NCBI GenBank assembly: GCA_020051015.1
Contig: JAGVJQ010000032.1
Coordinates: forward strand, 7,199-71,198
Direction: 5' to 3'
DNA length: 64,000 nt
Source of the DNA: Gammaproteobacteria bacterium
GTDB taxonomy: Bacteria; Pseudomonadota; Gammaproteobacteria; UBA1113
In this document: piece by piece, positions 19,797-59,532 of the stretch
How the letters are laid out: the number at the start of each line of letters is the position of its first letter
Position numbering within the stretch: the first letter of the stretch is position 1
Notes under the pieces: model-generated
What the model was told of the DNA's origin: nothing
The model's database searches: none
What the model saw: the letters and a program-made list of their open reading frames with translations, nothing else
Translations under genes and position numbers: made by a program

Positions 19797-19819
19797 GGAG
19801 CTGTTGACAATTCTACTTT
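19797..19819. repeat. MITE terminal-inverted-repeat fragment (left-end type)
   Basis: agctgttgacaattctact matches the left terminus of the MITE copies (ggggctgttgacaattctact). It is preceded by cctagg, as at the MITE flanks. Confidence 0.7.
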
Positions 19820-21233
19820 AACGCAAAGGTCTCATTGAAAGTTTATTGGCTGGCCCATTAACATGTCCGATATCGGATGCTGGAAATACTTGCGCATTGA
19901 CTCTTGTTAATGGCAAATCGTAATTAACACTACCCAGGAATTTACGCGTTAAAGCAGTAGGATCGACTGCAACGTAAGATTGTGCTGATGCACTACTTTG
20001 TTGCGCGATGGCCTTTAGCCCACTTGATGCTTGTCGATGTACTTCACCAAGAGCATAAGCAGAATTTTTTAGTTTATTATACACTTCATCAGCATTTCCA
20101 AATTGTGGATTTTGTTCCGCAAAGGTTTTTGTTAAATCTCGGCTAACTAACAATCCATGCGGTGTAGTAATCAATAACTGTGTTAATGCGCCATTGCCAT
20201 TTTGTCGACCATATTTATGTCCATATTGCTTTAACCAATTAAGGAAAAACTCACCAAATTCAGTTGCGCCCAGCGAACCGCTGATTTCAGATGAGCTAAT
20301 CTCTTTACCCGGAATAAACATGCCACTATTAGTAAAATGAGATTGAGGTACAGTGGCTTCTTGATTAAATGTGGTATTTTCTTGATTACTGTCTGCGTCA
20401 TCAGCTTGTTTAGCATTTTTCTTATCTTCACTAGATTCACCAATTTCATATTGTTGAATTAAATCACCAATTAAAAATCCAGCTTCTAAATTGGGTTGTT
20501 GTTCTAAATCAGCTTCGATAGGTAAAATACATTTAGCAAATAAACCTGCATGTTTATCATCATTTAATAAAATGGCTAACCATGCGTTAAAAATTTCAGC
20601 ATCCGTTGCAATCCAGCTCACACCGACTGGCGGTAAAGTCTCTAATGCTAAAACCAAGGTACTGCGGGCTGCTAATTCATCACGACGTGTCGTTTCAAAA
20701 CTATAACGATAAAATTCGCCCTGATCTCGCATATATCCTTTTACAGGATTCCATCGTTGTGTTGGATGACCATTCATTTCACACATCATCACCCAGTACG
20801 TAGCAACAACTTGACCAATACCATACATCAAGCCAGCAGTAAAAAGTGCGTAACTCCAAATGGCTTGCCGAATGGGCATTTGCTCAGGGGTCGCATGGCG
20901 GACAGGAAATTCACGGCGATACCAAGCTAAAGTTTGTAGCGCTCGCTTGATGCCAAGCTCTAATAAACCACCATGATAATTAAACGTGTCAACTTGGGTT
21001 GCAGGTAATCCTTGCACAAAATTGGCGTAATCATGAATAGCTTTCAAATATAAGTCATTGAAAACACTTTCTGGCACAAAAGCTAAATTTTTTAACTGCG
21101 ACAATGTTTGTTGGTAATTTTTGCCTTTAAGCAATTGTTCCGCTGATAATACTGGATAATGCGGTGGTAATTTCGACATGATAGGTGTTACTTTATCCCA
21201 AGCTGGAGATGAGGCTACTTTTGTTGTAAACAT
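19818..21233 (-). CDS. hypothetical protein with similarity to the N-terminal HD-like domain of MobH/TraI_2-type ICE relaxases, with catalytic residues substituted
   Basis: Segment LPATQVDTFNYHGGLLELGIKRALQTLAWYRR...ATPEQMPIRQAIWSYALFTAGLMYGIGQVV resembles the LPAS...HHxxxGGLLxHTLEV...LLHDIGK region of MobH relaxases, but the second His, the H-T and the HD are replaced. 471 aa, no transmembrane segment. Confidence 0.4.
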   Translation of the reverse strand: MFTTKVASSPAWDKVTPIMSKLPPHYPVLSAEQLLKGKNYQQTLSQLKNLAFVPESVFNDLYLKAIHDYANFVQGLPATQVDTFNYHGGLLELGIKRALQTLAWYRREFPVRHATPEQMPIRQAIWSYALFTAGLMYGIGQVVATYWVMMCEMNGHPTQRWNPVKGYMRDQGEFYRYSFETTRRDELAARSTLVLALETLPPVGVSWIATDAEIFNAWLAILLNDDKHAGLFAKCILPIEADLEQQPNLEAGFLIGDLIQQYEIGESSEDKKNAKQADDADSNQENTTFNQEATVPQSHFTNSGMFIPGKEISSSEISGSLGATEFGEFFLNWLKQYGHKYGRQNGNGALTQLLITTPHGLLVSRDLTKTFAEQNPQFGNADEVYNKLKNSAYALGEVHRQASSGLKAIAQQSSASAQSYVAVDPTALTRKFLGSVNYDLPLTRVNAQVFPASDIGHVNGPANKLSMRPLR

Positions 21234-26534: not shown

Positions 26535-27782
26535 ATGAAAGAAAAACTATTACAAACGATTAATCAATTAATTCCACAAATAGATAAAGTACTTAAAAAG
26601 AAAAAAATTCGTACTGCAGATACGGCTGAAGCACTGGATTTTATAGCTTTATTAAATAAAATCAGCATTATTAAAAAAGAAAAAATCCTTCGCAGTGATG
26701 ATGCCTTTTTAATCTTTTTATCCCTTGCGGAAATTTTATTCATTAGCTTAAATTATCTAATAAAACATGAATTAATAGATGAAACAATTAAAAGAACTCT
26801 CTACGAGATTTACGCTAAACTAAACTGGTGTTCAAACCAAATATTCGGACAAAAAGATACTGGTTTTTATTTTACTACGTCGACAAATTTTACTAATGAT
26901 GCAATAACTAACGAAACAGTCATTCCTACAATAAAAAATATGGCTTATCTCAACCTAACACATAACTATCTATTAGAAACACAGCAGTTATATACAGAAA
27001 AAAATAGGACAAAAAAAATATCTGTAGCTGAAAAAATACTCTTCTACCGCTTTACATTCTTAATATTATCAACATATAACAATAATAATATAATTAGTGG
27101 TTACCGAATTATTAAGGATCATGTTAATGTATTACCCGATTCTTACGAAGTAAATTATCAAACTTGTATTGATTCCATTAAATCGTTATATGAAAAAAAT
27201 TTATTAGCCCTTAAAGAAACACCGTACCAAGGCTTTTTTGTTGCTGCATTGCACTCACTCACAACACAGCTTGATTCAATTTCTAACCTAGAACAATTTA
27301 TCTCACTCATTCCACGCTTTATATCACAAGCGCTAGCAATCATTGCAGCTAGTCCATATAAAATAAAATTTGAATTATGCAATTTGGTTGATCTATTTAT
27401 GCTAGATACAATAGGAATTATATTTAATCTCAGTGAACATCCAATACTAAAGACAGTAAAAGATAATGTTTCTTCACTATATAGCAATATTGCGAATGCT
27501 GGTATTCCAATTTTAGCATGGCAACGACATTGCACGAACATTAAACTAGCTTGGGAAAAATTAGTTATCACCATTAATCAGCCTAATGTTTCAAGTGATT
27601 TATTTTCATCTTCTCTTGCTGCAATGATACCGAAAACTATGCAACTACAATATGCACAGAATGAGCAATTACGGCGATCATCGTCACCTATTCATAACAA
27701 GTCGAACTATAAAGATGGAACCATAGAAATTCACATTAAAGAAGAGTTTGCTGTTCCCATGCTCTTGAGTCTAACCTGCTAA
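26535..27782 (+). CDS. hypothetical protein (415 aa), very AT-rich, no recognisable motif; candidate effector
   Basis: Long ORF in a conspicuously low-GC segment, rich in I/N/K/L. No signal peptide and no TM evident. Confidence 0.5.
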   Translation: MKEKLLQTINQLIPQIDKVLKKKKIRTADTAEALDFIALLNKISIIKKEKILRSDDAFLIFLSLAEILFISLNYLIKHELIDETIKRTLYEIYAKLNWCSNQIFGQKDTGFYFTTSTNFTNDAITNETVIPTIKNMAYLNLTHNYLLETQQLYTEKNRTKKISVAEKILFYRFTFLILSTYNNNNIISGYRIIKDHVNVLPDSYEVNYQTCIDSIKSLYEKNLLALKETPYQGFFVAALHSLTTQLDSISNLEQFISLIPRFISQALAIIAASPYKIKFELCNLVDLFMLDTIGIIFNLSEHPILKTVKDNVSSLYSNIANAGIPILAWQRHCTNIKLAWEKLVITINQPNVSSDLFSSSLAAMIPKTMQLQYAQNEQLRRSSSPIHNKSNYKDGTIEIHIKEEFAVPMLLSLTC

Positions 27783-28951: not shown

Positions 28952-29123
28952 AAGTTATTTTTCTAAATCATATCCATACTAACCTTATGATACAATAAAT
29001 CGAATCATTACCGTATTAATATGATCTTAATCATAAAAACTACATACCTTTCGCTCATGAGTTCCCCTAAGAGCTATTTTGCGGTATATTTTCATCACAT
29101 TTAAATTGTTTAATGAGGCCAGA

Positions 29124-30605
29124 ATGAAATTTGAATTAATGCAACAAGATCCAACCACGATATCCAGTCAATGTATTATGGTAGGTGTTTTTGAAAAAGG
29201 TGAATTGACATCTGCATCTCAACTTATTGATAAATCAAGTGATAATCAAATTAGCCAAGTAATTGAACGCGGTGATTTTACTGGTGAAACGGGTCAGGTA
29301 ATCGTATTACACCACTTGAATGGTATAAAAGCTGAACGCATTATGTTGGTTGGATTAGGTGCTAAAGACAAATTAACCGCCACGGGATTCTGTAAAGCAA
29401 TACAAACCGCTTTTGCAACATTAGTTAAATTGCCTATTAATAATGCAGCATGTCTGTTAACAGAAATTGATGTTCCGGAAACCAATGAAAATTGGCGCGT
29501 CCGCATGCTGGCACAAGCCGCTGAAACAGCTAATTACAAATTTGATCAATTCAAATCACAAAAATCAGCAAAAACTTGTCTATTAGAAACCGTAAAAATT
29601 GCTGCGAAAAACAATGTTGAAATAGCGCTTAAAGAAGGTCAAGCTATTGCTCACGGGGTTAATTTAGCACGCCAATTAGCGAATATGCCTTGTAATATTT
29701 GTACTCCTGCTTATTTAGCGGAACAAGCAAAAGCATTGGCAAATGAATTTTCTAATCTAAAAGTAAACGTCTTAGAAAAAACTGATATGGTTGAATTAAA
29801 AATGGGTGCATTATTAGCTGTCGGTCAAGGTAGCGCCAATCCTCCCAAATTAATTGAATTAAATTATCAAGGTACTTCATCCGATAAAGCACCCATTGTA
29901 TTAGTTGGTAAAGGCATTACGTTTGATACTGGTGGTATTTCACTAAAACCTCCAGCTGGTATGGAAGATATGAAGTTTGATATGGGTGGTGCAGCAAGTG
30001 TTATTGGTACTATGCGAGCCATTGCTGAATTAAAATTACCTATTAATGTGGTTGGCTTAGTCCCTACTGCTGAAAATATGCCTGATGGTAATTCCTATCG
30101 CCCTGGCGACATTTTAACAAGCATGTCTGGCCAAACGATTGAAGTCGTCAATACCGATGCTGAAGGCCGTTTAATTTTATGTGATGCATTAACTTATGCC
30201 GAACGTTTTAAACCAGCAACCGTCATTGATATCGCAACATTAACGGGTGCCATGGTCATTTCCTTAGGTTATTTACTAAATGGTGTATTCAGCAATCAAG
30301 ATGAGTTAGCAAATGAATTAGTTGCTGCTAGCAAACGTAGTAATGATCCTGCATGGCACATGCCTTTAGTAGAAGAATATCACGAAGGATTAAAAAGCAA
30401 TTATGCTGATATGATTAATGCTAGCAAATTAGCTGGCGCAATCACCGCAGCTTGTTTTTTATCGAAATTTACCAAGCAATATCGTTGGGCACACATTGAC
30501 TGTGCAGGTACAGCTATGCCAGCGGATAGTAATAAAGCTGGTGGTGCTACCGGTCGTCCAGTACCATTATTAGTGGAGTATTTATTGCATGTCAGTTCGC
30601 GTTGA
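29124..30605 (+). CDS. pepA: leucyl aminopeptidase (M17). The start is taken at MKFELMQ; the track ORF begins at 29079.
   Basis: NTDAEGRL signature; GKGITFDTGG; about 495 aa. Confidence 0.9.
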   Translation: MKFELMQQDPTTISSQCIMVGVFEKGELTSASQLIDKSSDNQISQVIERGDFTGETGQVIVLHHLNGIKAERIMLVGLGAKDKLTATGFCKAIQTAFATLVKLPINNAACLLTEIDVPETNENWRVRMLAQAAETANYKFDQFKSQKSAKTCLLETVKIAAKNNVEIALKEGQAIAHGVNLARQLANMPCNICTPAYLAEQAKALANEFSNLKVNVLEKTDMVELKMGALLAVGQGSANPPKLIELNYQGTSSDKAPIVLVGKGITFDTGGISLKPPAGMEDMKFDMGGAASVIGTMRAIAELKLPINVVGLVPTAENMPDGNSYRPGDILTSMSGQTIEVVNTDAEGRLILCDALTYAERFKPATVIDIATLTGAMVISLGYLLNGVFSNQDELANELVAASKRSNDPAWHMPLVEEYHEGLKSNYADMINASKLAGAITAACFLSKFTKQYRWAHIDCAGTAMPADSNKAGGATGRPVPLLVEYLLHVSSR

Positions 30606-31023
30606 TTTTTATGTTCTGGCACAAGCAAATGAAACAGCTGGTTTACAATTTGCCTGTAAATTAGCAGAAAAAGCTTATCGTCATAAACAGCGCATGTATG
30701 TGTACTGCGCTGATCAAGCAACAGCTCATCGCTTCGATGAGCTGTTGTGGACTTTTGATGATATCAGTTTTGTTCCACACTTATTGCAAGGTGAAACAGC
30801 AAAATACCCTCCTGCGATCAATATTGGCTATAGCGAACCACAAGCCTCTTATCCTCTTATTTTAAATTTAAGCCATGAAATACCGGCTTTTTATTCGAAT
30901 AGTAAGCGTGTAATGGAAATTGTTTTTGGTGATGAAACTCAACGTGCTGCAACACGTGAGCGATTTAAACAATACCGTGCCGACAGTTGTGATATGCATA
31001 CGCATCAAATGGATAAATACTAG
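30589..31023 (+). CDS. holC: DNA polymerase III chi subunit
   Basis: MSVRVDFYVLAQANETAGLQFACKLAEKAYRHKQRMYVYC is the typical chi N-terminus. Synteny pepA-holC-valS. Confidence 0.8.
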   Translation: MSVRVDFYVLAQANETAGLQFACKLAEKAYRHKQRMYVYCADQATAHRFDELLWTFDDISFVPHLLQGETAKYPPAINIGYSEPQASYPLILNLSHEIPAFYSNSKRVMEIVFGDETQRAATRERFKQYRADSCDMHTHQMDKY

Positions 31024-31163: not shown

Positions 31164-31385
31164 ATGAAACTTGAAGTCAGAAAAATTGGTAACTCCGTTG
31201 GTGTAATCTTACCTAAGCAATTAACAGATAAATTACATGCGGTTGAAGGCGACTTACTCAATGTAATTGAATCACCCGAAGGCGTGATCTTAACTCCTTA
31301 TGATCCAGATTTTGATAATGCTATGAAAGCATACGCTAAATTTTCGAAAAAATATAAGAACGCACTACGAGAATTAGCTAAATGA
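31164..31385 (+). CDS. AbrB/MazE/SpoVT-family antitoxin
   Basis: 73 aa; swapped-hairpin motif LEVRKIGNSVGVILPKQL. Its stop overlaps the doc start (ATGA). Confidence 0.7.
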   Translation: MKLEVRKIGNSVGVILPKQLTDKLHAVEGDLLNVIESPEGVILTPYDPDFDNAMKAYAKFSKKYKNALRELAK

Positions 31386-31771
31386 AAAAGCCTATTTGGC
31401 TAACTACAACTCATGTGTTGGCATTTCATACTGATCAAATTCGTGAACATGGTGGCTTACATGGTATTCGAGATCATGGCCTATTTGAATCTGCAATAGC
31501 AAAACCTCAACAAGTTTATCATTACAATGATAAAGCGACATTATTTGATCTTGCTGCTGCATATGCTTATGGCATTATAAAAAATCACCCATTTCTTGAT
31601 GGTAATAAACGTACCGGTATTATTTGTGCTGGCGTTTTCCTTTCGCTTAATGGTTATTTTTTAAATGTTGAAGAAACTGAAATGGTCATGACTGTATTAG
31701 CATTAGCGAGCAGCCAAATGACTGAGTCTGAATTTGCCCATTGGTTGAAAAAAAATTCAACTGCAGAATAA
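31382..31771 (+). CDS. doc: Doc (death-on-curing) / Fic-family toxin
   Basis: Fic/Doc motif [11 protein letters not shown]; 129 aa. Confidence 0.85.
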
Positions 31772-31797
31772 TTTTAAACTATTTTTTAGGTAATTTA

Positions 31798-34572
31798 ATG
31801 GAAAAAGTTTACAACCCACATCAAATCGAACAAACCTGTTACCAAAATTGGGAACAACAGGGTTATTTCACTCCCACCGGCCAAGGTCCTGCTTATTGCA
31901 TCATGTTGCCACCACCTAATGTCACCGGTACTTTGCACATGGGACACGGCTTTCAACAATCGATTATGGATGCGTTAATTCGTTATCATCGCATGCATGG
32001 TGATAATACGTTATGGCAAATTGGTACTGATCATGCCGGCATTGCAACCCAAATGGTGGTTGAGCACCAATTATTACAACAAAATATTACACGTCATGAT
32101 CTCGGTCGTGAAAAATTTGTCGAAAAAGTATGGGAATGGAAAGAACAATCCGGAAATACCATATTGCAACAAATGCGCCGCTTAGGGGTATCTGCTGACT
32201 GGTCACGCGAATGCTTTACCATGGACGAGCATATGTCTGATGCCGTACGTGAAGTGTTTATTCGCTTATTTGATGAGGGATTAATTTATCGCGGCCAACG
32301 TCTCGTTAATTGGGATCCCAAACTTCATACCGCAATCTCTGATTTAGAAGTTGTAGCAAGTGAAGAACAAGGTTTCTTATGGCACATTCGTTATCCACTA
32401 GTGAATGGTAATGGTCATTTAATTGTTGCTACTACTCGCCCAGAAACCATGTTAGGTGATGCTGCAGTGGCAGTGCATCCTGAAGATGAACGTTATAAAC
32501 ATTTAATTGGCCAATTTGTTCATTTACCATTAACTGATCGCACCATTCCAATCATTGCTGATGAATATGTTGATAAAGAATTTGGTACAGGGTGTGTGAA
32601 AATTACACCTGCACATGACTTTAATGACTACGCCGTTGGCCAACGTCATGAATTACCCTTAATTAATATCTTAAATGCCGATGCAACTTTAAATAATGAG
32701 GTGCCTGAAGCTTATCGAGGTTTAAATCGCTTTGTTGCACGTGAAAGAATTGTTAATAATTTAGAAACACAACATTTACTCGAAAAAATCCAGCCTCATA
32801 CGCTAAATGTACCACGCGGCGATCGTTCAGGTGAAATTTTAGAACCCTTCTTAACTTTCCAATGGTATGTGAAAACTAAACCATTAGCTGAACCTGCAAT
32901 TAAAGCAGTTGAGAGTGGTGAGATTCGTTTTATCCCAGAAAACTGGAGTAAAACCTATTATCAATGGATGTATAACATTGAGGATTGGTGTATCAGTCGT
33001 CAATTATGGTGGGGACACCGCATCCCAGCTTGGTATGATGAAGCCGGTAATATTTATGTGGCGCAAGATGAAGCAAGTGCTCGTAAGAAATATCATTTAT
33101 CTGATACAGTTAAATTAACGCAAGATACTGATGTGTTAGATACGTGGTTCTCTTCAGCCCTATGGCCATTTTCCACATTAGGTTGGCCCCATGACACACC
33201 AGAATTAAAAACATTTTATCCAACCAGTGTCTTGGTCACGGGCTTTGATATTATCTTTTTCTGGGTTGCCCGCATGATTATGTTTGGTTTGAAATTTACT
33301 GGAAAAATTCCTTTTAAAGATATTTATATTACTGGCTTGATTCGCGATCATGAAGGCCAGAAAATGTCGAAATCAAAAGGTAATATTTTAGATCCCATTG
33401 ATTTAATCGATGGCATTGATCTTGATAATTTATTACAGAAACGTACCACCGGTTTAATGCAGCCACAAATGGCGGCTAAAATTGACAAAGCCACGCGCCA
33501 GCAATTTCCCGATGGTATTCCTGCATATGGTACTGATGCATTGCGTATGACATTTTACAGCATCAGCAGTCCAAGCCGTGATTTACGTTTCGAATTAAAT
33601 CGTCTTGAAAGTTGTCGCAATTTCTGTAATAAATTATGGAATGCCGCACGATTTGTTATTATGAATGTTGAAGGTAAAGATTGTTCATTTAACGAATCAG
33701 ATAATGCCCAACTTAATATTGCTGACAAATGGATATTATCTAAATTACAGCACTTAATTAATTCTATCGTTGATGTTGATCTTCCCAATTATCGTTTTGA
33801 TTTGGCAATGCAATCCATTTATGAATTTACCTGGAATGATTACTGTGATTGGTATTTAGAATTAGCAAAGGCTATTTTAGCAACATCAGATAATCCTGAC
33901 ATGCAACGTCGTACGCGCTATACATTGATAAATGTATTAGATCAATTATTACGAATATTGCATCCATTTATGCCATTTATTACGGAAACCATTTGGCAAA
34001 CGATAGCACCATTAACTGGCAAGAAAGTAGCCGCTAATGCAAGCATCATGACTCAAGCTTATCCTCAAGTAGATAATAGTGTTATCGATACAGAGAGTTG
34101 TGATGATATTGAATGGCTACAAAAAACTATCATTGGGATTCGAACTGTTCGCAGCGAAATGAATATTAATCCTGGTAAAATGCTGCCATTAATTATTCGT
34201 AATGCTGATGATAACGATAAAATACGTTTGAACCAATTAGAGTTATTTATTCGCAGTTTAGCAAAAGTAAATTCCATTGATTTTTTGGCTGCTGATATAG
34301 AAGCCCCTGCTGCTGCAACAGCTTTAGTTGGGCAAATGGAGCTATTAATTCCATTAGCTGGCTTAATTGATGTTACTGCTGAAACTGCGCGCTTGAATAA
34401 AGAAATTGGAAAATTGCAAGCTGAAATAACCAAGTGTGAAACTAAGTTAGGGAATCCAACGTTTGTTGATAAGGCACCACCAGCGGTGGTTGTACAAGAG
34501 AAACAACGTTTAAGTGATTTTTCTGCTGCATTGCAACAATTGCAAGAGCAATTGAAAAAATTAAAAATGTAG
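31798..34572 (+). CDS. valS: valine--tRNA ligase. The start is taken at MEKVYNPHQ; the track ORF begins at 31741.
   Basis: HMGH and KMSKS motifs; C-terminal coiled coil; about 924 aa. Confidence 0.95.
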
Positions 34573-34656: not shown

Positions 34657-34708
34657 AGCGTAATACGGGATCGGTGGTTGTTTATGGCACGATCCTGTAT
34701 TACGCGCG
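34657..34708. terminator. strong bidirectional hairpin between convergent valS and dotB
   Basis: gcgtaatacgggatcg ... cgatcctgtattacgcgc gives a 16 bp stem with a 16 nt loop. Confidence 0.65.
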
Positions 34709-34719
34709 ATATTCAGATA

Positions 34720-35862
34720 CTACGCCAATCCAGCATCTCTGTCAGCATTAATTGAACCAGCCGCTAAAATTTTATAATCACGCTCGCTGATAATACCATC
34801 ATCAAATCGACGTTTTGCTTCGACGATCATAGGTTGTCCATATTCTTTCAACAAGCGGCGTGTTTCTGCTGTAATATTTTCGACATTGACACTTAATAAC
34901 TTATCACGAATAGCTTCATCAAAGATTAAAAATTCGCGCAATGCAGTGCGTTTACCATCAACAGTAGGTACTAGTTTTTGCCAAATAATTAACCGTACGG
35001 TTTCAATAATATCAATAGTACGGCCATGTCGTTCATCAGCTGGAAATGTATTGACTAAACGACGCATAACTTCGGAGACACCATTACTATGTAATGTCGT
35101 GTAAACCGGATGCCCAGTAATAGCTGCCTCCATTGCCGCTGCAATTGTTTCCGTGTCACGTGCTTCACCCACCAAAATCAAACGCGGTTTACGTCGTAAC
35201 GCATTGCGCACTCCGGCCGCAAAACTAGGCAAATGACGAGGAATTTCGGATTGACTAATGACAGTATTAGGTCTTTCAACGCTATCATATACAAATTCAA
35301 TAGGTGATTCATAAGTAAGTATTTTACGATTGCTTTCTGTACTTTCTGCTAAATGTCGAATAATCGCTGCTAATAAAGTACTTTTACCTGATCCAGTTGC
35401 GCCCGTAACATATACCACACCTTCTTGTGGCGCAATCGCTGGTAATAAAGTTGGTTCCAACTGCATGCTTTCTAATGTTGGAGGATCACTTGGAATAGTA
35501 CGTAAGGTCATTTGAATGGCATCATGCCCTTCTACTTGACAGCCTGTACCATTGACACGATAACGATAGCGCTCAGATCGACTTGGACGCACTTCATAGT
35601 GCGTATCAACATCTTTACCGCTTAAGATTTGCGTCGTACCATTTGGGCCATAAATAAAATTCAGCATGTCGCCAATTTCGTTATTGGTCATTCGTCTGCG
35701 CGTAATATGATATAAACGACCATACACTTCAGCAATAACATGCTCATTGGTTTGTAGCGTTATATCAGATGCTTGAATTTGATGGCAAAAAACCAACATT
35801 CGATCCATTTCATCTTTGGTAAAACGTAATGGTTCATCTGGCAAACTATAAGACTCATTCAT
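34720..35862 (-). CDS. dotB: Dot/Icm type IVB secretion ATPase DotB (PilT/VirB11 superfamily)
   Basis: Walker A GATGSGKST plus Asp and His boxes of PilT-like ATPases; 380 aa. Immediately downstream of dotA. Confidence 0.8.
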   Translation of the reverse strand: MNESYSLPDEPLRFTKDEMDRMLVFCHQIQASDITLQTNEHVIAEVYGRLYHITRRRMTNNEIGDMLNFIYGPNGTTQILSGKDVDTHYEVRPSRSERYRYRVNGTGCQVEGHDAIQMTLRTIPSDPPTLESMQLEPTLLPAIAPQEGVVYVTGATGSGKSTLLAAIIRHLAESTESNRKILTYESPIEFVYDSVERPNTVISQSEIPRHLPSFAAGVRNALRRKPRLILVGEARDTETIAAAMEAAITGHPVYTTLHSNGVSEVMRRLVNTFPADERHGRTIDIIETVRLIIWQKLVPTVDGKRTALREFLIFDEAIRDKLLSVNVENITAETRRLLKEYGQPMIVEAKRRFDDGIISERDYKILAAGSINADRDAGLA

Positions 35863-35877
35863 GCTACACTAATCCCA

Positions 35878-38337
35878 TTATGAAACCTTATTATTCTCAC
35901 CACCACCTTGTTTGCCCTGCGAAGCATTGAAGGCGGCCTCCATTGCTTTGGCTTGCAATGCACGGTTACGCTCATCTTTAACAGCCTCAGCACCCGCTTT
36001 GGCACCACCTTCTGCTTGACCAGAAACTTTTTGGCCGCCTTGCGATACTTCTTGATCGGCTTCTTGACCGGTTTGTTCTGGTGTTTCACCTATCCAACGT
36101 AATACTTGATCGGGAATTTTGTGGATTAACTTGAAACATTGTTGCATTAAATACGTTGCCAACGAGAAATAAGTGATCAGTGTAAAGAACATCGTAAACG
36201 GTCCAAAAACACTCATACTTAAAAATGAAATTGCAACTTTGAAACCACCATTTAAAATCTGAAACGCGATATATACTAATAAACTTGCAGCAATAAAACC
36301 AATAATCATCAACATGGGCCGCAAAAATACACTTAGTAATAACATAACACCCTTTTCAGATCGTCCCCAAATGTCATGCTGACCTTCTGGATGCACAATC
36401 CCCAGTGCTAAAATAGGTCCCGCCACCATCGCTTCAATTACCAAAATTAACCACGCTAGCGAACCTGCTGTAAACAAAATATAAGGGATTAATGGCATAT
36501 AATATCCCACCATGGCACCAAACCCCATGGTCATTCCTAACAATCCCATTGCCGGCAAAACGAATAAATCCAAGGCAATTTCAATTGAACTTGAAATATC
36601 ACTGCCAACAAACGGAATCCAACTAGTACCTGCATTTATGCCGACGACTAAACCACCAAATAACATAAATGTACTTGCCACAGTTACAACGATGGTTTGT
36701 CCCATGGTTGCTAATCCCACAACCGGATTACTGGATGTGCTTGTTATGACTTGCAGAAACCAATTAAAGATATCTTCAAACATACTATTAATCGCACCAA
36801 TCAACGGTGAGAGAATACCAGTACCGTTATTAGAGGTATAAGTAACATTAAAAGTTTGAGCCGGGCCATTTACATTTAAATCCTTTGGAATACACGGAAC
36901 AAGAATGGCACCCGCATTATTTGCAGTCGTTGCTGAAATGCTATTTGATCCAAGATTAGGACCACTACAAATTTGAGTAATTTGCTGAGTATCACTATAT
37001 TGCTGCGATGATGCGTAATTGTTAATGGCACCTAAATTCGGCGTATTTACTTTAGGGGCATTCACATTAGGCGTGGTTTCAGCAGTAATTTTACTTAATA
37101 AAAGGTAGTAAGTTCCTGCATACAACCAACCATATTGTCGTGCTTGATTTAAATCGCCCATAATTGCCACAGATGCATTGGATGCAAGTGACTGTCTTAA
37201 TTGTTGTGTGTCACCCAGCCCTCCCTGCGTCCCTTTAGTCAATAACCCACCGCCGCCCATTTGTCCTTTGACAATAGGTGCATTCGCGCCAGTAGATTGC
37301 GCTGAATAGTTTTGTGCCGCATTAAGAATTTGTCGTTGTACCTCTTGAATACAGTTTTTATCGGTATTTAAGTTGCAATAATTTGATGTGTTAACATAAT
37401 AATTAGCAGCTTGAGCTAATGTTTGCGTGATGCTAATCAATACTTGGTTCGATTGCATGGCTTTTCGATAAGCATATACGTCATCCAAGGATCCGTAATT
37501 ACCATAATTAGTAAAAGCATTGGTAATTTGTGACACACCCTCCGCTGCTGGCACATAATTCGCAACATTACCCATGGCAGTATTATTAGTATTAAAACTA
37601 CCTTGTTGTCCTACTCCAGAAGGTTTTTGTGGCGCAGTTAACTCAACCGTTCCACAAATAGCTGGTTGATTAGGATTGGTAATACCAAATTTTATTGCCG
37701 TACCATTTGATGCATCAGATGATGGGTAAAAAATACTGGATGTAGATGGTTGAGTTTGTACACCTTGCTCAAGTTGATTTTGCGCTAAAGCTAATGAATA
37801 GGTACAAGAGGCATTTTTAAAGATTTGGATAATTGCAGGCATAACTTGTTGCGAAACATAAGGCACTTGTGGTGTCGCATTCCCTTCCATCACATTTTTC
37901 AGATATTGATTCCATAGATAATCCGCTGCACCAACACCTTGCACTACAATCCACATAATAATAACTTGAATAATCGCGTAACCACCGGCTTTTACTGGTA
38001 ATAACATGGCAAAACCCGCGGCCATACGCAATGGGATCCACACTGAGCTCCATTTTTTCCCTAATAATTCACCATCATGTGCCGTATTAACAGTAGAAAC
38101 GATAATGGCATAAAGAATAATAAAACCACCGACTACTAAGGCAACGTTATTAAAGAGCAAAATTACAGTCTCTAGTGGACCATTAGTCGCACCACCGATC
38201 ACATTACCAACTTGACCGAATATTTCGCTTAAAAACAACATGGATTGATCCATGTTAGGCACCGCAAAAATACTACCTGCCGCTAAACTTAGTGGAGATA
38301 CTAATAATAAAATTAAGCCGAGGAAAATACGCATCAC
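35878..38337 (-). CDS. dotA: Dot/Icm type IVB secretion protein DotA
   Basis: 819 aa with signal peptide. N-terminal block IIVSTVNTAHDGELLGKKWSSVWIPLRMAAGFAMLLPVKAGGYAIIQVIIMWIVVQGVGAAD matches the conserved DotA N-terminal region. Large Q/N/T-rich periplasmic domain and a C-terminal polytopic TM bundle. Confidence 0.8.
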   Translation of the reverse strand: MMRIFLGLILLLVSPLSLAAGSIFAVPNMDQSMLFLSEIFGQVGNVIGGATNGPLETVILLFNNVALVVGGFIILYAIIVSTVNTAHDGELLGKKWSSVWIPLRMAAGFAMLLPVKAGGYAIIQVIIMWIVVQGVGAADYLWNQYLKNVMEGNATPQVPYVSQQVMPAIIQIFKNASCTYSLALAQNQLEQGVQTQPSTSSIFYPSSDASNGTAIKFGITNPNQPAICGTVELTAPQKPSGVGQQGSFNTNNTAMGNVANYVPAAEGVSQITNAFTNYGNYGSLDDVYAYRKAMQSNQVLISITQTLAQAANYYVNTSNYCNLNTDKNCIQEVQRQILNAAQNYSAQSTGANAPIVKGQMGGGGLLTKGTQGGLGDTQQLRQSLASNASVAIMGDLNQARQYGWLYAGTYYLLLSKITAETTPNVNAPKVNTPNLGAINNYASSQQYSDTQQITQICSGPNLGSNSISATTANNAGAILVPCIPKDLNVNGPAQTFNVTYTSNNGTGILSPLIGAINSMFEDIFNWFLQVITSTSSNPVVGLATMGQTIVVTVASTFMLFGGLVVGINAGTSWIPFVGSDISSSIEIALDLFVLPAMGLLGMTMGFGAMVGYYMPLIPYILFTAGSLAWLILVIEAMVAGPILALGIVHPEGQHDIWGRSEKGVMLLLSVFLRPMLMIIGFIAASLLVYIAFQILNGGFKVAISFLSMSVFGPFTMFFTLITYFSLATYLMQQCFKLIHKIPDQVLRWIGETPEQTGQEADQEVSQGGQKVSGQAEGGAKAGAEAVKDERNRALQAKAMEAAFNASQGKQGGGENNKVS

Positions 38338-38843
38338 TTGTCTCCACTCACTTTTTCATTAAGCCATTCTTTAATTGTGCAACCTAATTTATGATTTTTT
38401 ATCTGAAAATACCAAAAATGGTAACGACATGCTGTTACCAAACATAATAATGTCACGACAAACGCCAATGCAGCGCTAGTAAATGAGGCTTGCCATAATA
38501 AATAAAGGGTATACAAAAGCGTTAATGCTCCAAATGAGCCAATAATAATAACCATGCGCAGAAAATTAGATTGACGCTCTTGAATATCTGCTTCAGACAA
38601 ATTTAAGCGTTTCATTGCCTCTTCAAAACTTTCAGTATGTTCCGGCTTTTGAATAATAAAGAGAGAACGTGCATTATCCTTCACATAACTAGAATTAGAC
38701 TTGACTGCATCCCAGCTTACCCAGGATTTAACGCCGTTTCCAGCACGTTTCAATAAACCTTTTTTCGGTTTTTCAACCTTGCTCACCGGTGGTTGTTTCT
38801 GTTCTTCAACATTCGTTTCTGGTACTTTTGGTGTATCCGCCAT
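38334..38843 (-). CDS. icmV: Dot/Icm protein IcmV. The start is taken at MADTPK; the track ORF begins at 38900. There is a 4 nt ATGA overlap with dotA.
   Basis: Two TM helices and C-terminus RYHFWYFQIKNHKLGCTIKEW as in IcmV. Translationally coupled to dotA. Confidence 0.65.
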   Translation of the reverse strand: MADTPKVPETNVEEQKQPPVSKVEKPKKGLLKRAGNGVKSWVSWDAVKSNSSYVKDNARSLFIIQKPEHTESFEEAMKRLNLSEADIQERQSNFLRMVIIIGSFGALTLLYTLYLLWQASFTSAALAFVVTLLCLVTACRYHFWYFQIKNHKLGCTIKEWLNEKVSGDK

Positions 38844-39030
38844 GCGATTGACCTCAAAATAAAATTTACCCTTTAATTTCAATATAACACTGGAAGTCAA
38901 CCCCCGCCAATACTGTTTAAAAAAAATACATCATTTTAATGAAAATGCTTGCTTGGGCTTGCAACTAACTCTATAGTGTGCATATATGCCCATTATATTT
39001 GAAGATGCGAGTATCATTAAATATGACCAA

Positions 39031-39112
39031 GTGGGCGGAGCAAAGGGAGGGTTCCCGTCCGCGCGGAGCTTGCGAGCACGGCGGGATACCCGCAGCTCCG
39101 GGGCCCCACTTG
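39031..39112. repeat. GC-rich REP-like hairpin element inside the divergent icmV / icmW promoter region
   Basis: gggcggagcaaagggagggttcccgtccgcgcggagcttgcgagcacggcgggatacccgcagctccggggcccc, with inverted arms gcggagcttgcg / cgcagctccg. It stands out sharply from the AT-rich surroundings. Confidence 0.7.
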
Positions 39113-39152
39113 CCCCATTTCAAATTTCATATAAATTTCAGGAGATATCGAT

Positions 39153-39602
39153 ATGGTTGACCTTAGTCATGAAGGCGCACATAGGTTTTGGCGAGAATAT
39201 CCCGATCCAATGATTTATCGTGTGGTTGCTTTTATGGAAGGTGTGGAACAATGGACTTTAGACGGCGATCCAGCCTTTGAAGCCGCAGTTGCCAAATTGG
39301 GCGAAGAATTAGATAAAGTAGGCAATTATGAACTTGGAATGAAAGATGAGTTTATTAAATTTGCCACGTATATTAAAGCAGCGCGTAATTTACGCCTTTT
39401 ACAAGCATTAGACACCGCTCATCCTGGTGCCGCATCCAAATTACTTATTCATGCTGAAGAATCCAGCAAAAGCAGTGATGATATTCCTGGCCTTTTTTTA
39501 AGGCGTAATATAGTCTTTGAAAGATTACGTTTATTAGGCCGCATTTTTTCTATAGAACGTTTAGATTTAATTGTAAAAGCGCTTGGAGGTGAAGATGTTT
39601 AA
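39153..39602 (+). CDS. icmW: Dot/Icm type IV adaptor protein IcmW
   Basis: 149 aa. DLSHEGAHRFWREYPDPMIYRVVAFMEGVEQWTLDGDP and RLLQALDTAHPGAASKLLIHAEE match the IcmW family. Confidence 0.8.
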   Translation: MVDLSHEGAHRFWREYPDPMIYRVVAFMEGVEQWTLDGDPAFEAAVAKLGEELDKVGNYELGMKDEFIKFATYIKAARNLRLLQALDTAHPGAASKLLIHAEESSKSSDDIPGLFLRRNIVFERLRLLGRIFSIERLDLIVKALGGEDV

Positions 39603-40068
39603 AGTAGCTAAATTATCCTCGTTATTCGTTGTTACTGGGCTGATTAGTATGAGTTCAGCTTGGGCAGCAGACGCGAATGACACCCTTTACCAACAAGTTG
39701 GTAATCAAGATATCAGTGTTTTAAATAGTATGAATGTCCAAGCATCGCAAAACCAAGCCCAACAAATGGGTACGCAAATGCAACAAGATATTAATCAGCA
39801 ACGTGCTCAAAATCAACAATATTTACAACAAGTTGGACAACAAATCATTCAAGCTGGAACACGTAATGGCGCCACTCAAACCACTATAACACCACCAGCG
39901 CCAACCAATACTCCCACGACGAATACACCGACCACAGGGCCATCAAACAATGCCAGCCCTGCCACTTCTACTAATAAATCCACATCTACAAACCCACCAG
40001 CTCCCACTACGCCAAATGGTTTAAGTAATGGTGCTAATGGTGGCAGCGGTTGGAGTTATGGTTTTTAA
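39583..40068 (+). CDS. secreted Q/N- and T/P-rich protein (161 aa)
   Basis: Signal peptide (LSSLFVVTGLISMSSAWAAD), a poly-Q/N central part, a TNTPTTNTPTTGPS repeat, and a G-rich C-terminus. It overlaps icmW by 20 nt and is in the same frame as the next ORF but separated from it by TAA. Confidence 0.5.
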   Translation: MEVKMFKVAKLSSLFVVTGLISMSSAWAADANDTLYQQVGNQDISVLNSMNVQASQNQAQQMGTQMQQDINQQRAQNQQYLQQVGQQIIQAGTRNGATQTTITPPAPTNTPTTNTPTTGPSNNASPATSTNKSTSTNPPAPTTPNGLSNGANGGSGWSYGF

Positions 40069-40104
40069 ATCTATTTTCAATTAATTTTTCCACTGGAGGT
40101 TTCT

Positions 40105-41103
40105 GTGAAACATAAAGCACAAAAATTGGTAGCGTTAACTACTGTAACAACAGCGATGACGGTAGGATTATTAGGTAGCAGTACAGCGCTAGCTGATGAT
40201 AGCTCTGACAGCGTTCATCAAATTACAAGTGGTGTTGCTAGTGCATTTGGCTTTGGCACTATCAATGTCTTAAGTGGCTTATATACTTATTTACAAGATT
40301 GTGAAAATGCTTATTCAGTTTGGGTACTTAAAACCATGCAAGGTAATGCTACTCAATACGCCATTACTGACTCACAAAAATTACAGGCACAAACCGCAAA
40401 AGATACTACGGCCTTTATCTTTAACGCGGTCACCGCACCTAATGCTCAGCCACAAGCAACAACGTCTACGGGCTTACCAACTAATTATTCTGCTGGTGTT
40501 TATGCAGCTATGGTACCGGTTAACAGAGACACGATGGGATTAGCTAAATCTACTTACTTATCAAGTGAAGCGCTTTTTGCCTCAACCAAATACAATGGTG
40601 ATACACAGCGTCAACAAGCTGGCACATTTATTCAATTTTTAGGTGATGCGGGAGCCAGAGTAACGCCGCTAAATGCGCAAACGTTACAAAAAGCAGATGG
40701 TGCAACAGCCGCATCTTATTTAAACTCACTAGCAACTTATTATGCCGGTCAATCAGTGGGCTTAAATGCACTTTACAATTTGTATAATGAACGTATCCCA
40801 GTTCAACAATTAAATGGTGAAAGTGTCTTATCAAATGATCAAAAGCAAGTTCTGCGCCGCATGCAACCTGCTTGGACCGAAAGTGTCAGTAAAATGACAA
40901 TTGTTGATGTTGCACGTGAAACGCTTTATACACAAGCCGAAATGAATTATCAACTCTTTCAGCTACGCATGCAGTTAGAGCAATTAAATGCTACATTGGC
41001 AGCTATGCAAATGGAGCAACAACAGATTTCTGCTAAACCATTATTGATGGGTAAAGAACAACAAGTTATCCAATCAGCTAATGCGGCAAGTGCTCCTAGT
41101 TAA
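40105..41103 (+). CDS. icmX: periplasmic protein, probable IcmX homologue
   Basis: GTG start with GGAGG RBS. Signal peptide MKHKAQKLVALTTVTTAMTVGLLGSSTALA. 332 aa with a C-terminal coiled coil. Sits in the icmX position after icmW. Confidence 0.45.
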   Translation: MKHKAQKLVALTTVTTAMTVGLLGSSTALADDSSDSVHQITSGVASAFGFGTINVLSGLYTYLQDCENAYSVWVLKTMQGNATQYAITDSQKLQAQTAKDTTAFIFNAVTAPNAQPQATTSTGLPTNYSAGVYAAMVPVNRDTMGLAKSTYLSSEALFASTKYNGDTQRQQAGTFIQFLGDAGARVTPLNAQTLQKADGATAASYLNSLATYYAGQSVGLNALYNLYNERIPVQQLNGESVLSNDQKQVLRRMQPAWTESVSKMTIVDVARETLYTQAEMNYQLFQLRMQLEQLNATLAAMQMEQQQISAKPLLMGKEQQVIQSANAASAPS

Positions 41104-41108
41104 TGATA

Positions 41109-41190
41109 ATATACCTATCACACATCAAGGTGCGATGTTTGCTTCTAAGAGAATGGTAAACTCGCATTTTGAGGTGTGATAGATATATAC
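41109..41190. terminator. long imperfect inverted repeat between convergent icmX-like and the regulator gene
   Basis: Left arm atatacctatcacacatcaaggtgcg; right arm cgcattttgaggtgtgatagatatat. Confidence 0.5.
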
Positions 41191-58023: not shown

Positions 58024-59460
58024 CTACTTTGTATGCGACGTTGTTGGGTGTTTATTTTTTGCACCATTAATCGACGCCACACACGCCTGATATCCTTTCT
58101 TGGTTTGATGTTGGAGCGCACACCAGTAATATGGCAGCCAATAGCCCTGTGTAATATATTGACTATCGGTATCCACACCATAATACTTTTGATATTGTTC
58201 TGCTCGCCAACCGGATTGTTCAATCGTTGAGTAGCCATTTAAAATACGACAGGGGTGACAGTATGGTTGATACACTTTATTAAAGTCATATTCTAACGTC
58301 CACGCTCCCGTCGGCTCATTCAAGTAATAAGTTTGGAAATTCTTTAGCTTCATCGAATGCGGATAATAGTCGTACACTTTAAACGCTGGATTATTGCCAT
58401 AAATTGGTGAAACAGCGGGAATAAATGTATTCAGCAAGCGCACACGATTATGTAAGTGTATTAACTGCGCTGCATCCATATGAATATGTGAAGTAATTAA
58501 AGCCGCAATCGTATCTGGATATTGATTAACCAATTTTAAAAAAGCTTCATTATACTGTGGTTGCCATAACATGGTTGTAGCTTTTTTATTCACTGTATAA
58601 TAAGCATCAACACCATTGGGGATATGGTATACCAACCAAACATGTTGTTTATTTTGTTTTGCACTTTGTAATTGTTGTTGCAGCCATGTTAATTCTTGTT
58701 GCGCAGCAGTTTTAATATTAGGGCCAATTGCAATAGCAGAAAATAATACCGTATTTAAAAATATAACCCGGTTGGTTTGTTTAGTCTTCGTTGGCAATGT
58801 TATTGCATAATAACCGGCCTGAGGAAACGTCTGCTCAAAAGATGCTTTATTTTTTACATCAGGAATCATACTTTGCCATAATTGCGTCATATTTTTATAA
58901 AAATCACCTTTTGGATCAGAATAATAATTTCCATCATAAGAATCATTATTCCCAAGTGCGATATAAACGGGCGTATCAGGGAATGTTTGTTGTAATTGTC
59001 CTTGCAAGTATTGATAAGTTTTATTTACAAATTGCTTATAATCTTGTAATGATTTATCTCCAGTAAATTGCTGAAAATTTTGTTGGTAGTTATGGGCTAA
59101 TAAATCCCCCGTTAACATCACAAAACGATAAGTCTTAGGTAATGCCTTGATTTGATTTAAAGTTGAATTCAATAATGCGGTGTTAGTATCTTCGCCATCT
59201 TGACTCGGGGTTTTTGCATCATATTTTTTCAAGATGCTGGCCCATTGTTCAGCTGGTGCAGCTTGTAATTTTTGAATCAAATCACAAGGTTGATTATTTG
59301 GTTGACATGTTTCAAATGGACTGAAATGAATATCACTCAACGCTAAAAATGTTGCCATGACTTTATTGCCACAGGCTGCAGTCGAGAAGAGTAATATTGA
59401 GACTAATAATAGGCTGGTAAGTAATCGCAATGTATTACCAAGTTTAAAAACATGCCGCAT
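58024..59460 (-). CDS. lipoprotein, calcineurin-like metallophosphoesterase (acid-sphingomyelinase-like phosphodiesterase family). The start is taken at MRHVFK.
   Basis: Lipobox LLFSTAAC. Metallophosphatase motifs LSDIHF, LTGDLLAHN, LGNNDS and YHIP/SHIHMD. Confidence 0.7.
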   Translation of the reverse strand: MRHVFKLGNTLRLLTSLLLVSILLFSTAACGNKVMATFLALSDIHFSPFETCQPNNQPCDLIQKLQAAPAEQWASILKKYDAKTPSQDGEDTNTALLNSTLNQIKALPKTYRFVMLTGDLLAHNYQQNFQQFTGDKSLQDYKQFVNKTYQYLQGQLQQTFPDTPVYIALGNNDSYDGNYYSDPKGDFYKNMTQLWQSMIPDVKNKASFEQTFPQAGYYAITLPTKTKQTNRVIFLNTVLFSAIAIGPNIKTAAQQELTWLQQQLQSAKQNKQHVWLVYHIPNGVDAYYTVNKKATTMLWQPQYNEAFLKLVNQYPDTIAALITSHIHMDAAQLIHLHNRVRLLNTFIPAVSPIYGNNPAFKVYDYYPHSMKLKNFQTYYLNEPTGAWTLEYDFNKVYQPYCHPCRILNGYSTIEQSGWRAEQYQKYYGVDTDSQYITQGYWLPYYWCALQHQTKKGYQACVASINGAKNKHPTTSHTK

Positions 59461-59532
59461 AATAACCAATTCCATAAGGACAATAGAAGCCCGTATTATA
59501 CAGTATTTGGCGAAAATTACGTCTTTAGATTA

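Follow-up and report, generated by a model that had tools for sequence, protein, structure and literature searches.

A sub-locus of Dot/Icm, a type IVB secretion system (T4BSS), is located at positions 34720-41103 of a 64,000-nt stretch of DNA from assembly GCA_020051015.1 (contig JAGVJQ010000032.1), which is called the window in the following and to which all positions refer. Here, it is very probable that the sub-locus is canonical but for a single feature, namely that dotB has been flipped beside dotA and parted from dotD and dotC. Six open reading frames (ORFs) were verified, of which dotB, dotA and icmV on the minus strand are divergent from icmW, a small ORF termed orfY and an icmX-like gene on the plus strand:

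34720-35862, minus strand: dotB, a hexameric PilT-like ATPase (NCBIfam equivalog TIGR02524)
35878-38337, minus strand: dotA, a polytopic inner-membrane protein of 819 aa (TIGR04346), starting at GTG 38337 or ATG 38334
38334-38843, minus strand: icmV, 169 aa, a small protein of the inner membrane (NF038219; longest ORF 38334-38900)
39153-39602, plus strand: icmW, the adaptor/chaperone of the IcmS-IcmW-DotL coupling complex (NF038222, 172 bits; Pfam PF23130, 184 bits)
39595-40068, plus strand: orfY, 157 aa, with ATG 39595 preceded by GGAGG (longest ORF 39583-40068)
40105-41103, plus strand: icmX, divergent, 332 aa with a signal peptide, assigned by a profile match to 9ngy_AP1

The original prediction described this organisation as non-canonical and used as reference a Legionella pneumophila layout in which dotA is divergent from icmVWX. 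This reference is contradicted by the operons of L. pneumophila, which are icmV-dotA (lpp2741-2740) and a separate icmWX (bioRxiv 10.1101/2024.09.25.615009). The annotated record of L. adelaidensis (NZ_LR134433.1) reads dotD>dotC>dotB> <dotA<icmV, set apart by a vertical bar from icmW>icmX>, and icmV overlaps dotA by 4 nt. A co-directional and coupled icmV-dotA pair, divergent from icmW to icmX, is present in the window and likewise in L. adelaidensis, L. pneumophila, Coxiella and the majority of the uncultured relatives. Thus icmV-dotA / icmW-(orfY)-icmX represents the canonical architecture, which is also the ancestral one. Of the features regarded as unusual, the coupling of icmV to dotA, the divergence of icmW and the small ORF are all normal, and what stands is dotB after dotA without dotD and dotC. 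The canonical same-strand linkage dotC>dotB> is not found in the window, where dotB follows dotA instead of dotC.

To place this feature, gene order was surveyed in a set of loci (numbered with the prefix L), consisting of 27 loci from species-representative genomes obtained with a DotB query, 37 metagenomic loci obtained with a DotC profile, and several loci added via exact-protein look-ups. The loci were annotated with seed proteins, and 58 of them were countable, that is, dotB plus at least 1.2 kb upstream was visible. The dominant layout is <dotL<dotM<orf<icmS<icmT, dotD>dotC>dotB>, <dotA<icmV, icmW>(orfY)>icmX>. Here, dotC lies upstream of dotB on the same strand in 54 of the 58 loci, and dotB and dotA are adjacent and convergent in 28. 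The order icmV>dotA>dotB> without dotD and dotC was found in four of the 58 only, which are the window, L029 (JGI 3300014198, also beside valS), L030 (Logan SRR33557408) and L002 (NCBI metagenome-assembled genome (MAG) 29, GCA_013043985). The DotC-profile scan of metagenomes, which yielded the 37 independent loci, revealed dotB directly downstream of dotC in every locus extending past dotC, and no close relative of these four was among them (best 58% identity). The position of dotB is the sole non-canonical feature of the sub-locus, and it is rarer than the original prediction implied.

Such an order could in principle be an assembly or binning artefact, for example a contig mis-joined or inverted at a repeat, since the sequence is metagenomic and the relatives often have palindromic repeats between their genes. 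The same order is seen in four assemblies that are independent of each other and differ in sample and pipeline, and the dotA-dotB gap of the window is a repeat-free 15 bp, which makes an artefact extremely improbable.

The four loci with the flipped dotB are related to each other. In neighbor-joining (NJ) trees of concatenated DotB, DotA, IcmV and IcmW they are monophyletic in 100 of 100 bootstraps, and the closest outgroups are L001 and L031, both of which have the ancestral layout. The DotB proteins of the clade are 85% identical to that of L031 and 88-90% identical to that of L001, and the latter value indicates an orthologue and not a foreign copy. Furthermore, dotD and dotC of this group of organisms were found without dotB. 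In L070, which belongs to the same assembly as L002 (JABEVJ01), the order is <orf<icmS<icmT, dotD>dotC>, followed by 547 bp that hold neither dotB nor any other gene, and in L072 and L074 dotD>dotC> are followed by unrelated convergent genes. The DotC proteins of L070, L072 and L074 form a clade sister to L001 and L031, mirroring the DotB/DotA tree. The expectation that the remaining dot/icm genes lie elsewhere is supported, as to dotD-dotC, by the sister MAG, where this pair is on a separate contig, and for the window's own genome it is based on the relatives only.

These contigs also bear on the explanation that dotB of the window is a second paralogue, with a canonical dotD-dotC-dotB operon elsewhere in the genome. 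Two DotB-like genes are present in one locus in the MAGs L009, L010 and L059, and the remainder of the genome lies outside of the window. On the contrary, no DotB-like sequence is detectable after dotC in L070, L072 and L074, and the DotB proteins of the clade are closest to the dotDCB-linked DotB of L001 and L031. A second paralogue is very unlikely for these reasons.

For the relocation of dotB, an inversion in place followed by breakage from dotD-dotC would be the simplest scenario. Here, the ancestral dotB, standing tail-to-tail with dotA, would have flipped in the common ancestor of the clade and become the last gene of the icmV-dotA unit. Since dotB already abutted the 3' end of dotA ancestrally, a flip in place yields precisely the order that is seen. 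The convergent dotC/dotB spacer created by the flip would have broken later, parting dotD-dotC, which would be kept elsewhere in the genome. Probably, dotB lost its link to dotD-dotC through a single event in a single lineage. The gene beside dotB varies within the clade, being valS in the window and L029, a SNF2 helicase in L030 and a PIN-domain VapC-like toxin in L002, and this junction has thus been rearranged repeatedly. As a consequence of the flip, dotB would now share the icmV promoter and be expressed along with DotA instead of with DotC and DotD, the lipoproteins of the outer membrane.

Several points weigh against this reading. The trees are simple NJ trees of few proteins, and the MAG from which L002 and L070 derive was obtained by binning, which can produce chimeras. 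The dotC, dotD and about 20 other dot/icm genes of the window organism are deduced from relatives only. No DotC remnant or scar was found in the dotA-dotB spacers and dotB 3' flanks of the four clade members, and in the window dotB is not flanked by a repeat either. Furthermore, the dotA-dotB spacer of L002 and L030 measures 200-270 bp and bears palindromic repeat elements, so that dotB could have its own promoter there.

GC-rich palindromic repeats resembling repetitive extragenic palindromic sequences or miniature inverted-repeat transposable elements (REP/MITE-like) were observed at 11147-11414 of L001, 11141-11318 of L031, 9731-10000 of L002, 9800-10000 of L030 and 93-182 of L070. In L001 and L031 they lie in the dotB-dotA spacer and in L002 and L030 in the dotA-dotB spacer, and are thus present in both layouts. 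It is a speculation that such elements promoted these rearrangements; the junction of the window is clean. The dotA-dotB "spacer" of L029 is a frameshifted C-terminus of DotA.

Within L074, dotD-dotC stands alone (3397-6143), between RNase R/SpoU-methylase genes on one side and a radical-SAM gene on the other, with no icmT/icmS upstream. The T4BSS genes of this lineage appear to be more dispersed than those of its relatives. Two further arrangements were observed in the survey. The order in L066 (13661-15958) is dotD>dotC>dotB> <icmX<orf<icmW icmV>dotA>, i.e., the whole divergent pair is inverted, and in L024 (10001-21101) it is dotB>dotA>icmV>dotA>.

The identity of the genes is supported by family models as well as by solved homologues from L. 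pneumophila. DotB scores 614 bits with the DotB model TIGR02524 (cutoff 463), and L. pneumophila DotB (6geb) matches it with E=6.5e-164. Its scores with the TraJ model (263 bits, cutoff 368) and the PilT model (210 bits, cutoff 319) are both under the cutoff. IcmW is matched by the L. pneumophila structure 5xnb with E=1.4e-52, and its gene is preceded by a Shine-Dalgarno sequence AGGAG 8 nt upstream of the start. IcmV reaches 151 bits with its equivalog NF038219 (cutoff 100), and no solved structural homologue of IcmV was found. The alignment with the IcmV model begins at residue 49 of the longest ORF, so that icmV probably starts at ATG 38843.

DotA carries an N-terminal signal peptide, MRIFLGLILLLVSPLSLA, and scores 348 bits with the DotA/TraY model TIGR04346 (cutoff 100) and 444 bits with the stricter DotA model NF033886, where it stays under the cutoff of 500. 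L. pneumophila DotA (9ngy) matches with E=4e-77, and the hydrophobic regions at residues 7-155 (N-terminal) and 520-785 (C-terminal) are conserved in comparison to this protein. The window DotA is shorter than the 1048-aa DotA of L. pneumophila mainly in the periplasmic extended domain (about 146 aa less). A length of "only" 819 aa had been highlighted in the original prediction, yet it is ordinary, since the median is 844 aa over 57 DotA-like ORFs of the fetched loci. At the icmV/dotA junction the sequence is GTGATG, and the TGA of icmV overlaps the GTG start of dotA by 4 nt or its ATG start by 1 nt. The proposed translational coupling of the two genes is therefore plausible, and the ATGA motif given for it has to be replaced by GTGATG.

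Two observations concern dotA in other loci. Tandem DotA paralogues, two to three in number, head-to-tail and usually downstream of icmV, were seen in L003, L020, L022, L023, L024, L026 and L056, all from uncultured gammaproteobacterial or Legionellales MAGs. This hints at diversified protochannel subunits. By homology, the pentameric protochannel at the centre of the machine is made up of DotA and IcmX (PMC12501162). In L029 (7577-9983), dotA is present as two ORFs of 718 and 88 aa, the shorter of which is 70% identical to the C-terminus of the window DotA; either dotA is a pseudogene with a frameshift here, or the split stems from a sequencing error.

A conjugative transfer locus of the IncI type (mating pair formation type I, MPF-I), residing on a plasmid or an integrated element, would be a further alternative, since Dot/Icm is homologous to the IncI tra genes and DotB also has a match to the TraJ model (263 bits). 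A gene with a TraI_2 domain is also encoded in the window (19818-21233). Nevertheless, the TraJ score lies below its cutoff and the DotB equivalog far above its own. Matches of DotB in plasmid records are all below 60% identity except for the L. adelaidensis record (66.5%), and the full-length TraJ/ATPase matches among those listed are at about 31-36%. Furthermore, IcmW and IcmV are Legionellales-specific components (PMC8896642), the flanks are core housekeeping operons, and no relaxase adjoins the locus. The probability of an IncI-type locus is close to nil. The original prediction of a Dot/Icm sub-locus of a Legionellales member thus holds, and the locus is chromosomal, on the basis of the NCBIfam equivalogs, the solved L. 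pneumophila homologues and the housekeeping flanks, and a type IVA system, a conjugative type IV secretion system and a plasmid-borne locus, which it had named as contrary outcomes, were checked and none of them was found.

The product of the last gene on the plus strand is more divergent. The gene starts with GTG, with GGAGG 5 nt upstream. As a single protein, it matches the IcmX model NF038225 with E=0.007. A profile built from nine proteins encoded at the icmX position matches L. pneumophila IcmX (9ngy_AP1) with E=2e-17, where profile positions 126-310 align to residues 225-447, the C-terminal half; in the N-terminal half of the profile no likeness to L. pneumophila IcmX was detectable. The ORF is accepted here as a divergent IcmX, the predicted periplasmic partner of DotA. 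In a study based on family clustering, icmX has been treated as Legionella-specific (PMC8896642). The proteins at the icmX position of the window and of eight other non-Legionella loci match IcmX by profile, so that IcmX is widespread and too divergent for clustering-based family calls. Contrary to that study, these profile matches clearly point to divergent IcmX orthologues outside of Legionella.

Between icmW and icmX, orfY overlaps the stop codon of icmW by 8 nt with its ATG, and a translational coupling to icmW is predicted. The predicted product consists of a Sec signal peptide (..SAWA|AD), one long Q-rich helix, a disordered P/T/S-rich linker and a C-terminal GWSYGF. In the AlphaFold2 model a helix of moderate confidence spans residues 33-93 and the remainder is disordered (pLDDT 52). 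An alignment of orfY sequences revealed that the C-terminal W-x-Y-G-F is invariant. The ORFs following icmW in L001, L002, L007, L027, L029-L031, L034, L036, L038, L046, L053, L054 and L066 are positional equivalents, which share the overlap with icmW, a length of 110-200 aa, a signal peptide, a low-complexity linker and an aromatic C-terminus of the form [GS]W-x-[YVI]-x-[FY]; examples of these C-termini are GWHYGF, GWNVKY, GWNIKY and SLNIKY. No orfY-like ORF was found in the L. adelaidensis, L015 and L018 loci. On the level of sequence, four relatives were obtained by a word-indexed search, an exhaustive HMMER search found seven representatives of clusters (E<1e-10), and no significant match was found among Pfam, NCBIfam and PDB profiles. 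Judged by these sequences, the orfY product is a fast-evolving protein that is predicted to be secreted.

As a possible counterpart, the 206-aa ORF upstream of traW in IncI plasmids (the TraV position) was considered and rejected, with an hhalign probability of 0.04 and an IncI protein that has no signal peptide. In Coxiella, cbu1651 is a small hypothetical gene directly upstream of icmX and is reported to be non-essential for vacuole biogenesis (PMC4117601); the equivalence of orfY to this gene is positional only. Our best guess, held with low confidence, is that orfY may encode a periplasmic accessory factor of IcmX/DotA or of the outer-membrane assembly. One could go further and assume that its aromatic C-terminal strand docks by beta-augmentation, that this accessory role is replaced in Legionella by the enlarged extended domains of IcmX and DotA, and that channel and energiser are wired differently in the clade, which we consider rather unlikely. 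If both the accessory role and the placement of dotB in the icmV-dotA operon were true, it would be the stoichiometry and timing of the DotA/IcmX channel and the DotB energiser that differ.

The sub-locus is predicted to be transcribed from a central divergent promoter region and to be closed by a hairpin on either side:

34658-34708: hairpin in the valS/dotB convergent spacer, with a 17-bp stem (free energy (dG) -24.5 kcal/mol, z -3.92)
38844-39152: divergent icmV/icmW promoter region (promoter scan)
41109-41190: hairpin between icmX and a convergent response-regulator/GGDEF gene (dG -40.1 kcal/mol, z -7.4)

In the promoter scan, a sigma-70-like site was found upstream of icmV on the minus strand (38910-38881). 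A PmrA-type tandem TTAAT-N6-TTAAT is not present in the icmV/icmW divergent region, and throughout the window 35 such sites were observed versus 33.8 expected. Ribosome-binding sites of the GGAG type precede icmW, orfY and icmX. The hairpin at 34658-34708 is a probable bidirectional terminator closing the icmV-dotA-dotB unit: none of 200 shuffled sequences folds as well. The "strong terminator against valS" of the original prediction is hence a strong hairpin indeed, but its U-tract is weak, and a consensus terminator scan did not detect it. Likewise, the hairpin at 41109-41190 probably terminates the icmW-orfY-icmX unit. Taken together, we infer that the genes form two divergent units with a hairpin at the end of each, with icmV-dotA-dotB on the minus strand and icmW-orfY-icmX on the plus strand, and dotB would be co-transcribed with icmV-dotA.

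A third hairpin lies within the icmV/icmW spacer, which is otherwise AT-rich. This GC-rich, imperfect hairpin of about 90 nt (39025-39115) has a dG of -52.1 kcal/mol and a z of -2.9. No second copy is present in the window or in 74 related loci, no Rfam match was obtained, and the relatives do not have it at this position. A repeat element and a known RNA were considered for it and rejected, since it is single-copy and has no Rfam match.

The neighbourhood of the sub-locus is of a housekeeping type. On the side of dotB the following genes were annotated:

29079-30605: pepA (Pfam)
30589-31023: holC (Pfam)
31164-31771: antitoxin/Doc pair between holC and valS (Pfam)
31741-34572, plus strand: valS, valine-tRNA ligase, convergent with dotB (NCBIfam NF004349, 1296 bits)

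The opposite flank consists of nuoN through nuoA, and according to family scans the rest of the window holds housekeeping genes including lgt, thyA, secB, gpsA and dapA. The GC content is uniform without anomaly. In the toxin-antitoxin pair, which lies beside the rearranged dotB junction, the antitoxin (73 aa) is of the MazE/AbrB type and the toxin (129 aa) of the Fic/Doc type. The ORF with the TraI_2 "putative helicase" domain (19818-21233, minus strand, 471 aa, E=1.9e-16) lies amid housekeeping genes and may be left over from a mobile element that had integrated. Furthermore, orphan ORFs of 163-569 aa that have no Pfam match are located at 486-2195 (minus strand), 2413-2904 (plus strand), 5163-6542 (plus strand), 26535-27782 (plus strand) and 58024-59475 (minus strand), and an NCBIfam scan of those at 486-2195, 2413-2904 and 5163-6542 gave no match. 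They are possible Dot/Icm effector candidates. An exact, PmrA-like TTAAT-N6-TTAAT site at 5119-5134 lies just upstream of the 5163 ORF, such sites being at chance level across the window.

The other genes of the system are not encoded nearby. Using the proteins of a close relative, tblastn gave no match for DotC, DotD, IcmT, IcmS, DotM and DotL in the 64-kb window, and family scans of its remaining ORFs detected no further dot/icm gene, including dotH, dotG, dotF, dotL/M/N and dotO. By both searches, the predicted absence of dotC and dotD from this region was confirmed for the whole window. This raises the question whether the six genes are relics of a decaying system from which core genes, dotC and dotD among them, were lost and which no longer builds a machine. 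The system is fragmented in the clade, dotD-dotC of L074 has no adjoining icmT/icmS, and dotA of L029 is split, all of which would fit to such a decay. However, all six ORFs of the window are intact and of full length with respect to their family models, the identity of 85-90% among the DotB proteins of the clade points to purifying selection, and the Shine-Dalgarno sites and coupled junctions are preserved. Furthermore, the sister MAG retains icmS-icmT/dotD-dotC, and the Dot/Icm system of Legionella is itself split into two regions (PMC12482156). A decaying remnant is therefore clearly unlikely. The Dot/Icm system of the window organism is predicted to be complete and functional.

With this locus, the organism can be recognized as a host-adapted member of the Legionellales that has a Dot/Icm system, for which effector translocation into a eukaryotic host would be expected. 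By homology, DotB is the ATPase that docks on DotO at the base of the machine. The separation from dotD-dotC can be regarded as a natural experiment, which suggests that the expression of dotB need not be coupled to that of the outer-membrane core genes. In addition, icmV>dotA>dotB> represents a synapomorphy by which the clade can be recognized in metagenomes. The understanding of how the Dot/Icm machine works is unchanged by these findings. The locus represents a known system with a lineage-specific change in gene order, and what is unusual is the relocation of dotB, which breaks a linkage conserved since the conjugative ancestors.

Among the systems compared, the nearest relatives are those of the uncultured Legionellales L001 and L031, which have the order <dotL<dotM<orf<icmS<icmT, dotD>dotC>dotB>, <dotA<icmV, icmW>orfY>icmX>. 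The same icmV-dotA and icmW-orfY-icmX units are present, with DotB 85-89% and IcmW 79-87% identical to the window proteins. L001 also shares the nuoN neighbour with the window. There, dotB is in the opposite orientation and linked to dotD-dotC and to icmT through dotL, whereas this place is taken by valS in the window.

Region I of Legionella (lpp2728-2743 in L. pneumophila) has the same seven-gene repertoire as the window except for dotC and dotD. In this region, dotB is the last gene of dotD-dotC-dotB and convergent with dotA, in contrast to the window, where dotB is co-directional and follows dotA. No ORF is present between icmW and icmX in Legionella, whereas the window has orfY. The extended domains of the Legionella proteins DotA (1024-1048 aa) and IcmX (466 aa) are larger than those of the window counterparts of 819 and 332 aa. 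For Coxiella, we take it that dotB is kept with dotC and dotD in one contiguous locus. Directly upstream of icmX, Coxiella burnetii has the small gene cbu1651, a position like that of orfY in the window (PMC4117601), and the gene order is icmX-cbu1651-icmW / icmV-dotA.

A further comparison is that with the IncI1 plasmids of the R64 type, which have the homologous genes traH-traI-traJ-traK and traW-traX-traY, labelled in the record as DotA/TraY, IcmT/TraK and TraJ ATPase. These genes are all co-directional and plasmid-borne, IcmW is missing, and TraJ is about 33% identical to DotB of the window. IncI1 retains the linkage of DotD, DotC and DotB as traH-traI-traJ, and the window does not. Since traH, traI and traJ are found together in IncI plasmids, this linkage predates the Legionellales. 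The dotD-dotC-dotB linkage, which was kept from the IncI plasmids to Legionella and Coxiella, appears to have been broken once, in a small uncultured clade that retained dotB beside dotA.

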